From positions 1 to 52,974 of the IMG/VR virus record IMGVR_UViG_2802429234_000005: DNA of 52,974 nt; one strand, given 5' to 3'. Each line of letters starts with the position of its first letter. The stretch's first letter is position 1. This DNA is from a virus. Taxonomy: Duplodnaviria > Heunggongvirae > Uroviricota > Caudoviricetes. Below, in pieces: positions 18,001-21,000 of this stretch. A program made the position numbers.

Positions 18001-21000
18001 CACACGATATGCAGGCTGCAATTGCCTGTAGCTCATGCCACGATTTAATCGACGGGCGGGCAAAAACCAGCGATTACACCAAAGAAGAATTGCGCCTGAT
18101 GCACGCAGAAGGTGTCTTTCGCACGCAAGAAATCTGGAGAAAGGAAGGTTATTTATGATTTACCCAACAAATACAGGCAAAAGCGGGGAACACCTTCGTC
18201 TCACCACGCTGGAAAGTGTCTGGATTCAGGGAAAACTGCGCATGTGGGGGCGCTGGTCGTATATTGGCGGCGGTAAGACGGGGAATATGTTTAACCAGTT
18301 GCTGGCATCCAAAAAATTGACGAAAACAGCCATCAATGAAGCTCTGCGCAGGATGAAAAAAGCGGGGATTGATAAGACGGAACTGGAGGCATTTTTGCGG
18401 GAAATGCTCGACGGTAAGCAGAAAAGCTGGTTGTCTCATTGTACTGATGCCGAGGCGTTATGTATTGATCGGGTAATTAGCGAAGTGCTGGTCGAGTATC
18501 CGGGATTAATTAGCATCCTCCGACAACGATATGAAGGGCGGGGGATGAGCAAACTGAAAATGGCAGAGAAGTTAAATGAGTATCGCGATGACTGGAGTCT
18601 GAAAACTTGCAGAAATCGTATTGACGCGTGGCTAAATGTTGCAGAACACATTCTGTATATACCAATGAAATTGGCGTTAAGCATAGAAAGCCAATAAAAA
18701 ATCATTGCGTTTTTGCCAATAAACTGCTTCAATTCAGTTACGCTTCGCAAAGCTGTATCGCGAGGTTAACCAGAAACGTGAACTTAAAAACCCGCCACTG
18801 GCGGGTTTTTTTATTTCTGGATCCTGGTTAAAAAATGCGCGATTAAATAGTCGTATAAAATATATTTTGTGTACATTTATGACTGTTTTTAAATTTATAT
18901 AAAAAGTTGACAAAATAGAAATCTAAAAATAAATTTACAAAACTTGACGCTGCGATGTATTGCAGTTTTATTATTTAAACGTATTATTTGCCGCAGTTCT
19001 TCAGGGGGGAGTAATTGCGATATATTCCTGTCTGAGGAAATAATGCCGATTTAGCTCAGTAGGTAGAGCAACTGACTTGTAATCAGTAGGTCACCAGTTC
19101 GATTCCGGTAGTCGGCACCATATGCGGGTATCGTATAATGGCTATTACCTCAGCCTTCCAAGCTGATGATGCGGGTTCGATTCCCGCTGCCCGCTCCAGC
19201 AAAACAAATGAGGTATAGGTTTTTCAGCACTGGCGTTTTTTTCGCGGGAAAGGTCTCGTATATCCTTTATCGCTCTCCCGAATTATAATGGAGACCAGTT
19301 ATGATTTCGGTGCTGTGTTTTTTGATACTATCGGAATAGTGCATTATTGGTGGGATTTTTTTGATGTTTCCTGGCAGGGGCTGATTATGCACTATCCCGA
19401 TGTTGTTAACATCACAAAATGAGGTGAGCCCCATGTGCGGGGGTGGTTTAAGTGGTTGTTTAGCGGGGAAACTACAGTATCTGATGGTATGTCAGGTATT
19501 TCGGGAGGCACCCGACACCTCACCTATATTATAATAATACTCTTCAGCACTTACTGATTTGACCACCGCCTTAACAGGCGGTTTTTTTTCGATAATTTGC
19601 AGAATTGTACGCTGAATAAGCATTACATCGTTAAATTTATAACTTATTCCGAATATGCTGTGCTTGCTTATTGTTAGTTTGCTTACATTTCTGTATCTTG
19701 CTGCACCGCAGGTTTTCCCTGTAACGACGCTTGTATGATGAATCATTTAAACTTTGTAATTTGCCAGCCAGTCTCTGGTGGCTGGCTTTTTTTTGCAAGG
19801 TGTTCCGATAGTTCTGTTCGTCAGACTGGATTCCCGCAGAACAAAAAGCCGTCACTAACTCATTGGGTAAGAGTGCATAACACATATTGTTGTTTTGTGG
19901 TGCAGGGTTCGAGTCCCCGGTGACGGTCCACTTGTAATGGTAAATATACTTTTAACAGGCTCGCTTCGGTGAGCATTTTGTATGAGTTTAATCCGGTTTA
20001 TATTGGCGAAAAAGGGCGCGGCTGTCGGATTAAAGCCGCGGGACAAAGTCCATGAAGAAGAATAAGTATCTGCCTCCTTCAGGAGACATGTTTATACTAC
20101 TAAGCATTTAGAATGGTTTAAATCCTCAGATTAACCTTAATTTCAGATAAGGCTTATTTCATTTTTTCGCGCACACCCGGCGCACATCAAAAACCACATA
20201 ACCTTTCAGGGGTGAGCTTACGGGATGATCAGTGTGACTTGAGCTGGTCACTCCGGGCGGAGGCTCATCCACTAAAAGGAAACGTCACGATGTTTGGGAT
20301 TTTCAAAAGAAAACCCGTAAGCCCATTGTTGAAATAAAGATGATGGAAAACTACGTGATAATGGGCGGCCGGTGGGTGTTTTCATGTGGCAAGAATCATT
20401 TTTCAGATTATTACAGTTGAAGTGATTTTATTCCTTGTTATTATACACCTGTCTTCTGGGAGAGTTATCTTATTCCCCGATAAGAATCCATATGAAGAGT
20501 AAAAATCGTTCAGGAAACAGGATCGCTGATTTGTAATTGGCTAGTCAGTGGCTGGAATCGCTCTGGCAGTAGATGAGACTCACTTATATTAAGTACTGAC
20601 GCTTTATTCGTGGTAAGTTTTCGTAACTGTCGCTTTTTGTTTTGTAATAAAAACAAAATATCACGGTGTTGGTGTTGTTATTTTACAATAGCGGGATGGT
20701 GTATTTTCGGTAGAAATGTTGTGTTTCTTTGGAGAGTCGGAAATACATCATTCCGGTGTTGTAAATAACACCAAAGAGATGTTTCCCGGTATGAGAGTGG
20801 TTTACATTGTTGCTTTTGGAACCACAATATCTGGCATAAAGTCAGATATTCAGGGAAGTCCGCAACATCTCAATTTCGCTACAATAAAAATGATTCATCT
20901 TCAGCATTGTTCAACCGCCGCACTAGGCGGTTTTTTTTGTGTTGAATTCAAAAAAATACACGGACACTGATAATGTCCGTGTGGCAATGCCATGTAAGTC

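Follow-up and report, generated by a model that had tools for sequence, protein, structure and literature searches.

What does a lambdoid prophage gain from carrying two tRNA genes behind its late antiterminator gene? The question is raised by the IMG/VR virus record IMGVR_UViG_2802429234_000005, of which positions 1 to 52,974 were analyzed as one window of 52,974 nucleotides, a Rac-like lambdoid LT-II prophage in which a tRNA-Thr(UGU) and a tRNA-Gly(UCC) gene lie between a Q-like gene and the lysis genes (Table 1). A preliminary description, made from the sequence alone, had proposed that the pair may provide codon capacity for late or cargo genes such as the toxin genes, and that it may be expressed in the lysogen. 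Both tRNAs proved to be genuine and derived from the host, and the explanation that we hold to be probable, with some reserve, is that, from within the late-operon leader, they raise gene dosage and codon supply for phage genes generally.

Identity, origin and distribution of the tRNA pair

ARAGORN placed tRNA-Thr(tgt) and tRNA-Gly(tcc) on the + strand, and both matched the full Rfam tRNA model (RF00005, positions 1–71), at 72.3 bits (E = 6e-14) and 63.4 bits (E = 1.7e-11), respectively, against a gathering score of 29 bits, so that a chance match is excluded. Each gene encodes its 3′ CCA, ending in ACCA (Thr) or TCCA (Gly), and has the features of an elongator tRNA, i.e., a 7-nt anticodon loop (CTTGTAA in Thr, CTTCCAA in Gly) with U33 and a purine at position 37, and a TTCGATT T loop. 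Both tRNA genes are genuine, and the ARAGORN and Rfam coordinates were identical to those of the preliminary description, which had placed two cloverleaf tRNAs 3 nt apart at 19045–19198 and had read them, with anticodons UGU and UCC, as decoders of the A-ending codons ACA and GGA; the spacer is TAT. Its location of the pair between a Q-proximal terminator and the lysis genes was right as to order, but the lysis genes begin about 2 kb downstream and are not adjacent. No convincing gene was found in the interval between the tRNAs and the first holin gene (19200–21270, ~2 kb). The position between Q and lysis genes, on the late-transcript (+) strand, is that of the lambdoid post-Q cluster, and the Q/tRNA/lysis layout is the same in 683R6, SerU-LTIIb and PEC41.

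The two genes are copies of host tRNA genes, a point absent from the preliminary description. tRNA-Thr is identical to K-12 thrU at 75/76 bases and tRNA-Gly to K-12 glyT at 74/75, the sole change in each being C6→U (window positions 19050 and 19129), by which the acceptor pair C6-G67 becomes U6·G67. The discriminator base, the anticodon arms and the encoded CCA are the same as in thrU and glyT. ThrRS and GlyRS recognize their tRNAs by acceptor pairs 1:72 and 2:71, the discriminator base and anticodon positions 35–36, and all of these identity elements are retained in both copies, along with near-identity to thrU and glyT over the full length. In strain PEC41, the copy is 100% identical to both host genes.

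In K-12, thrU and glyT belong to the operon thrU-tyrU-glyT-thrT-tufB. The host operon has tyrU and a 116-nt spacer, whereas the phage pair has neither and is joined by TAT; the host genes lie upstream of tufB with C6-G67, in contrast to a pair with U6·G67 in a prophage late leader. Comparison with the K-12 locus revealed no host sequence flanking the phage pair. Capture of the whole host operon or of its promoter was rejected, because host homology begins and stops at the tRNA borders. The ancestor would have been thrU-tyrU-glyT-thrT, from which loss of tyrU and the spacer would have left the thrU-TAT-glyT fusion. TAT can be read as the base after thrU (T) plus the two bases before glyT (AT), which fits such a deletion, the match being too short for proof.

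A 49-nt probe across the Thr-TAT-Gly junction, unable to seed on the separate host genes, matched 851 of 5426 complete Escherichia coli genomes (about one in six, ~16%) in 1018 places, all but one of them chromosomal. The probe also matched five phage records, among them those of SerU-LTIIb (LT-IIb) and phi467 (Stx2f). Another 119 loci came from a scan of viral contigs. Of the 124 fused pairs compared, 120 have TAT as the spacer, which argues that the fusion arose once. In annotations by the Prokaryotic Genome Annotation Pipeline (PGAP) and by depositors, the two genes already figure as tRNA-Thr and tRNA-Gly, and a paper on Stx2f phages mentions both tRNA loci (PMC5189129). The pair is thus a widespread, ordinary and already annotated module of lambdoid prophages, and as such not new; neither its spread nor its annotation had entered the preliminary description. 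It was also observed that homology of the window to PEC41-type, CDT-carrying prophages begins exactly at the tRNA-Thr 5′ end (19044), with different genes upstream, the tRNA edge therefore marking a place where phage modules have recombined.

Roughly half of the copies do not differ from the host genes. At pair 6:67 of tRNA-Gly, 65 copies have C-G, 53 have U-A and 4, including that of the window, have U·G; C·A occurs in none, the window state U6·G67 being the intermediate between the two common ones. In the T stem, the change G49A + C65U is also compensatory, and the anticodon arms are intact in 115/123 Thr and 121/123 Gly copies. Judged by these substitutions, the cloverleaf fold is under selection. 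Anticodon switches occur in the thrU-derived family: UUU (Lys) was found in two copies (two IMG/VR loci), and copy 1 of SerU-LTIIb (KU052038, 1122–1197) has TCT (Arg) with extra changes in the D arm and anticodon stem. Related arrays place Ile(CAU), Lys(UUU) or Arg(UCU) before the pair, all of which read A-ending codons.

Demand for ACA and GGA codons

In E. coli, ThrU(UGU) and GlyT(UCC) are the sole readers of ACA and GGA, and each is encoded by one host gene. A 2025 report on the nuclease P2-OLD also gives ThrU as the sole ACA reader (PMC12445682). Codons were counted in 50 genes of the window based on our own calls of open reading frames (ORFs) and in 40 annotated genes of one 50-kb core region of K-12. 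ACA occurred at 16.5 per 1000 codons in the window vs 5.2 in the K-12 sample (3.2-fold; Fisher p = 2e-21; per-gene Mann–Whitney p = 9e-7), and GGA at 14.0 vs 7.2 (2.0-fold; Fisher p = 1e-8; per-gene Mann–Whitney p = 0.003). Early and late prophage genes were alike in their use of both codons. Bailly-Bechet et al. reportedly described codon-compensating phage tRNAs in 2007 as those that read codons more frequent in the phage than in its host, which is the case for both tRNAs here.

Codons with a single isoacceptor reader were also ranked by the extra load that the prophage would place on each host gene copy, using the tRNA gene copy numbers of K-12. Thr-UGU came 1st, Ser-UGA 2nd, Gly-UCC 3rd and Arg-UCU 4th among 31 isoacceptor classes, the chance of two random tRNAs both falling in the top three being 3/465.

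The toxin genes (elt) contain 7 ACA and 9 GGA in 385 codons, more than expected from K-12 (p = 0.005 and 0.003), and to that extent the enrichment expected by the preliminary description was present. They do not differ from the rest of the prophage, however (p = 0.69 and 0.12), and their most extreme codons are AGA and ATA (33.8 per 1000 each), for neither of which the phage carries a tRNA. Codon support specific to the toxin cargo was rejected, since elt is no different from the rest of the prophage in ACA and GGA, and the likeness of early and late genes speaks in the same way against a supply meant for late genes. The enrichment is real and a property of the whole phage, not special to its toxin cargo. 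The pair is accordingly a routine part of lambdoid prophages, with no special adaptation to the LT-II toxin, and little changes for the window.

Candidate late promoter and downstream structured RNA

The homologue of the Q-like gene is labelled "antitermination protein Q" in relatives. As the preliminary description had stated, a terminator precedes the tRNAs (18786–18810, an 11-bp stem followed by a T run), and it is kept in relatives; the promoter-like hexamers reported to follow it were likewise recovered, as TTGACA-17-TAAATT (18907–18935), with 10/12 consensus matches, 110 nt upstream of tRNA-Thr. Hexamers and spacing are preserved in 23 distinct upstream sequences of relatives, 110–138 nt before the tRNA. 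The block TTTACAnAnnTTGA takes in the end of the -10 hexamer and extends into 18936–18950; divergent relatives keep it almost unchanged, whereas the sequence on either side varies, and the 18936–18950 block is possibly a Q-loading or pause site. The λ promoter pR′ has the same -10 hexamer and 17-nt spacing, and λ has TTGACT just after the -10. In one relative (L043), this promoter and leader are present in diverged form, and the gene immediately before them encodes a Q of another family (PF06323), a change as expected at a Q-specific site. A terminator scan of 4 kb (18000–22000) gave 20 terminator-like sites vs 4.6 expected from shuffles, and no strong terminator was found in it between the promoter and the tRNAs. 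Because the promoter is conserved and λ-like and no strong terminator separates it from the tRNAs, we infer that 18907–18935 is the late promoter pR′ and that the tRNAs lie in its leader. A further promoter match inside the pair (TCGGCA-16-TATAAT, 19112–19139) was treated as chance, because it runs from the end of tRNA-Thr across the spacer into tRNA-Gly, with TATAAT in the D arm of the latter.

The late promoters of λ and Stx phages are constitutive, with transcription ending at tR′ in lysogens, and the Stx2a phage Sp5 carries tRNAs beyond tR′ that have their own promoter, which is active in lysogens (PMC7547250). Since the promoter is conserved, lambdoid late promoters are constitutive and no strong terminator intervenes, expression of the pair in the lysogen is plausible.

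Directly after tRNA-Gly lies a conserved structured RNA of ~390 nt (19199–19590), which the preliminary description had also left out. A 75-pair consensus was obtained with RNAalifold from 30 distinct aligned homologues, with partners slid by 1–3 columns as the control. Of the cells, 98.7% were paired vs 35–52% in the slid controls; double-sided changes occurred in 13 pairs vs 0–4, and the covariation score was reached by 0/500 shuffles. In domain 1, the inner helix shows double changes from G-C to A-U. Helices 4 and 5 of domain 2 are 98.9–100% paired, with double changes in 3 pairs, and helices 6–10 of domain 3 include double changes at 5 pairs. An A/U-rich linker connects domain 3, which ends at 19521, to the terminator at 19566–19590, invariant in 30/30 homologues. 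An ORF on the minus strand (19492–19746), annotated by PGAP as "hypothetical protein" in relatives, overlaps this RNA and is probably spurious.

With 27.9 bits (E = 0.00027), the match of domain 3 to the STnc100 family (Rfam RF02076) stays short of the 47-bit gathering score. STnc100, like PasD, is a small RNA of prophages, and the two are located near Q and downstream of stx2 (bioRxiv 10.64898/2026.05.13.724894; PMC12370729). Domain 3 shares with them the multi-branch layout, motifs such as CGGGAGGCACCCG and a place in the prophage late region near Q, but the RNA of the window scores too low for the Rfam family and has two extra domains upstream. A second copy at 20668–20940, just upstream of the holin gene, could be aligned with the first copy and with phage 683R6 and had blastn support, which suggests that part of the leader was duplicated, as in SerU-LTIIb with its two tRNA pairs.

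Between the two copies, ARAGORN called a third tRNA, "tRNA-Tyr(ata)" at 19849–19930, which was rejected as a decoder. This element had no Rfam hit at E ≤ 1, and its fold was no better than that of shuffles (z = -1.0); for its counterpart in PEC41, the ARAGORN anticodon differs, "Val(aac)". The element receives no PGAP call either. It shares its acceptor and T arms exactly, and its D arm nearly so, with an annotated prophage tRNA-Lys(UUU) (L125:1502–1578), but has a rewritten anticodon arm with 5 additional nt. The pseudo-tRNA is retained at 91–94% identity in 17 E. coli genomes, and a search of the phage collection with its sequence gave no match.

Explanations for the pair and its setting

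On the explanation that we prefer, dosage and codon supply from host-derived tRNAs, the module would sit in the late-operon leader, ~100 nt after the likely pR′ and before the first strong terminator. This position would give a basal amount of tRNA in the lysogen and far more after induction, through replication of the template and read-through by Q-modified polymerase. Cleavage by RNase P and trimming at the 3′ end would yield mature tRNA-Thr(UGU) and tRNA-Gly(UCC), and the extra copies would raise the supply of ACA and GGA decoders. The selective benefit would then probably be help to phage translation generally, the toxin genes gaining only as part of it. A comparable argument was made for SfI, Sf6, ST64T and P21, where tRNA-Thr(UGU) is downstream of Q and ACA use is biased (17.3% vs 7.1%; PMC3636060).

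Several observations weigh against this explanation. Between the promoter and the tRNAs there is a weak hairpin (18949–18966) whose T run is interrupted, the U run after domain 1 (19319–19324) may or may not terminate transcription, and the region as a whole shows no enrichment of promoter-like matches (8 vs 6.5 expected). In both window copies C6→U weakens an acceptor-stem pair, and the Thr change, unique among 124 copies, could mean relaxed constraint. AGA, AGG and ATA are more enriched by ratio than the codons served, and Ser-UGA ranks 2nd in load; the phage has no tRNA for any of them. Moreover, the codon match is a correlation, with a baseline of 40 genes from a single 50-kb region and window ORFs called by ourselves.

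Alternatively, the pair could be a neutral passenger or recombination scar, captured from the chromosome and persisting because tRNA sequences lend themselves to crossovers, among phage modules and with the host copies, and of no benefit to the phage. PEC41-type homology starting exactly at the tRNA-Thr 5′ end (19044) behind different upstream genes, the half of the copies that are host-identical, consistent with gene conversion or recent capture, the decayed tRNA 650 nt downstream and the weakening C6→U in both window copies would all fit. We nevertheless consider this unlikely: a single junction is kept in 851 genomes, changes are compensatory with no 6:67 C·A in 124 copies, anticodon arms are almost never damaged, and the tRNAs match the top of the codon-demand ranking. 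The pair might instead act as a processing module, its tRNAs being mainly RNase P/RNase E cut signals whose cleavage frees a stable, STnc100-like small RNA, much as the glyW-cysT-leuZ operon yields a 3′ spacer RNA. In favour, the covarying ~390-nt RNA follows tRNA-Gly directly, with no convincing separate promoter between, and is closed by a terminator; in Stx phages, a regulatory RNA is produced by processing of the pR′ leader (PMC7547250). Only 37–59 of 111 pairs have parts of the structured RNA downstream, however, the second RNA copy (20668–20940) has no tRNA in front, and STnc100 also occurs downstream of stx2 (PMC12370729). Such a role would also leave the choice of these two anticodons unexplained, and we regard it as very unlikely.

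Phage copies could also serve as spare parts that replace host tRNAs cut by defence nucleases, notably P2-OLD. According to the 2025 report, P2-OLD blocks λ, killing infected cells, by cleaving host tRNA-ThrU (UGU), its main target, at paired CNG anticodon-stem motifs, and the cells are rescued by the tRNA-Thr(UGU) of phages, that of lambdoid phage 21 among them (PMC12445682). In the same study, resistance requires an altered motif plus a shortened stem, and an extra host-type tRNA-ThrU protects little or not (PMC12445682). The anticodon arm of the window tRNA-Thr is exactly that of thrU, with CUG/CAG, A37 and five stem pairs, unlike the resistant class, so that this tRNA is predicted to be P2-OLD-sensitive. 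Its anticodon loop and that of tRNA-Gly are identical to those of thrU and glyT, which makes escape by loop mutation (PMC10264068) inapplicable. Escape from anticodon-loop or anticodon-stem nucleases was accordingly rejected for this copy, both arms being identical to the host's. Neither a tRNA-targeting defence nor a Gam-like gene or RecBCD inhibitor was found among the window proteins checked (RecE, RecT, integrase, SieB, M78 peptidase/HTH, ParB-like protein and the TET-associated glycosyltransferase, TAGT). In the wider family, 5 of 123 fused-locus Thr copies, from viral contigs, have positions 42 and 43 changed, giving CAC or CAU for CAG at 40–42 and 3 stem pairs, the two-part signature of P2-OLD-resistant tRNAs; OLD-like pressure may therefore act on parts of this tRNA family. 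The glyT-type anticodon stem also has paired CAG/CUG motifs and A37. As the reason for this pair, replacement of cleaved tRNAs is quite improbable.

A broader version may be proposed, with tRNA, tRNA and small RNA as one constitutive pR′ leader, in which RNase P/E processing would double the dosage of ACA and GGA decoders and free an STnc100/PasD-like RNA. A silent prophage would then change host translation and RNA regulation, and the variants at positions 42 and 43 would be evolving under OLD-type nucleases. This is speculative, and we think it rather doubtful.

The closest known systems share parts of this arrangement. SfI, Sf6, ST64T, PS3 and P21, with tRNA-Asn(GUU)/tRNA-Thr(UGU), have the same post-Q position, UGU anticodon and argument from ACA bias (PMC3636060); their partner is Asn, whereas that of the window is Gly, and the comparison was made with their published description. 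The tRNA-Thr of phage 21 has an altered, shortened anticodon stem and is P2-OLD-resistant (PMC12445682), in contrast to the host-type stem of the window. Stx2 phages carry two tRNA-Arg and one tRNA-Met/Ile upstream of stx2, likewise in the interval from Q to the toxin/lysis cluster and for rare A-ending codons (PMC7946995; PMC7547250), and these tRNAs are transcribed in lysogens (PMC7547250). Those of Sp5 are downstream of tR′ with their own promoter (PMC7547250), whereas those of the window apparently come after the late promoter but before the first strong terminator, and the anticodons differ. The window also resembles the constitutive pR′-tR′ leader of λ 6S RNA and StxS in having the λ pR′ -10 hexamer and spacing just after Q and a terminated leader of a few hundred nt with structured RNA, but its leader, as predicted from the sequence, would be ~650 nt with two tRNAs.

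Should pR′ and the first terminator truly enclose the pair, two single-copy tRNAs may be present in an additional, constitutively expressed copy in ~16% of complete E. coli genomes, which could affect the expression of AT-rich acquired genes. The family, mostly of the P2-OLD-sensitive host type with a few resistant-like stems, would form a natural allele series for dosage vs escape.

Table 1. Features of the tRNA locus and its surroundings in the window.
Feature	Position	Strand	Basis or remarks
Q-like late antiterminator gene	18155–18697	+	PF06576/DUF1133, 337.9 bits; PF06530 Phage_antitermQ, weak, 27.3 bits
Intrinsic terminator 3′ of the Q gene	18786–18816	+	11-bp stem (6 G-C) and 3-nt loop at 18786–18810, then T run
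Sigma-70 promoter, candidate late promoter pR′	18907–18935	+	-35 TTGACA 18907–18912, 17-nt spacer, -10 TAAATT 18930–18935
Conserved start-of-transcript block TACAAAACTTGACGC	18936–18950	+	Possible Q-loading/pause site, putative function
tRNA-Thr(UGU), thrU copy with C6→U	19045–19120	+	ARAGORN, Rfam, K-12 thrU alignment
Spacer TAT, 3 nt	19121–19123	+	
tRNA-Gly(UCC), glyT copy with C6→U	19124–19198	+	ARAGORN, Rfam, K-12 glyT alignment
Structured RNA, domain 1	19226–19324	+	Helix 19226–19232 with 19308–19314, inner hairpins, U run 19319–19324
Structured RNA, domain 2	19322–19409	+	Long hairpin, ~31 pairs
Structured RNA, domain 3	19421–19521	+	Multi-branch element, weak STnc100 match
Strong intrinsic terminator closing the structured RNA, candidate tR′	19566–19590	+	CCGCC/GGCGG stem plus T8
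Pseudo-tRNA from phage tRNA-Lys(UUU)	19849–19930	+	
Degenerate second copy of structured-RNA domains 2–3	20668–20940	+	Own terminator 20913–20932 plus T run
Two holins and GH108 endolysin	21271–22517	+ (holin)	
LT-II A/B toxin genes (elt)	22706–23849		

Elsewhere in the window, two type I toxin-antitoxin RNAs scored above their Rfam gathering scores, i.e., RalA at 2544–2722 (179.8 bits) and sok at 16282–16456 (113.6 bits), the latter adjoining a hok-like ORF (16394–16606). Between the toxin genes and the terminase, a ParB-N-like gene is followed by the TET-associated glycosyltransferase gene (PF20691, 124 bits; 24121–25834 together), and the two may form a DNA-modification module. Inside the early region, on the minus strand (15108–16036), an M78 peptidase (IrrE-like) and an HTH regulator resemble CapP/CapH in PADLOC.

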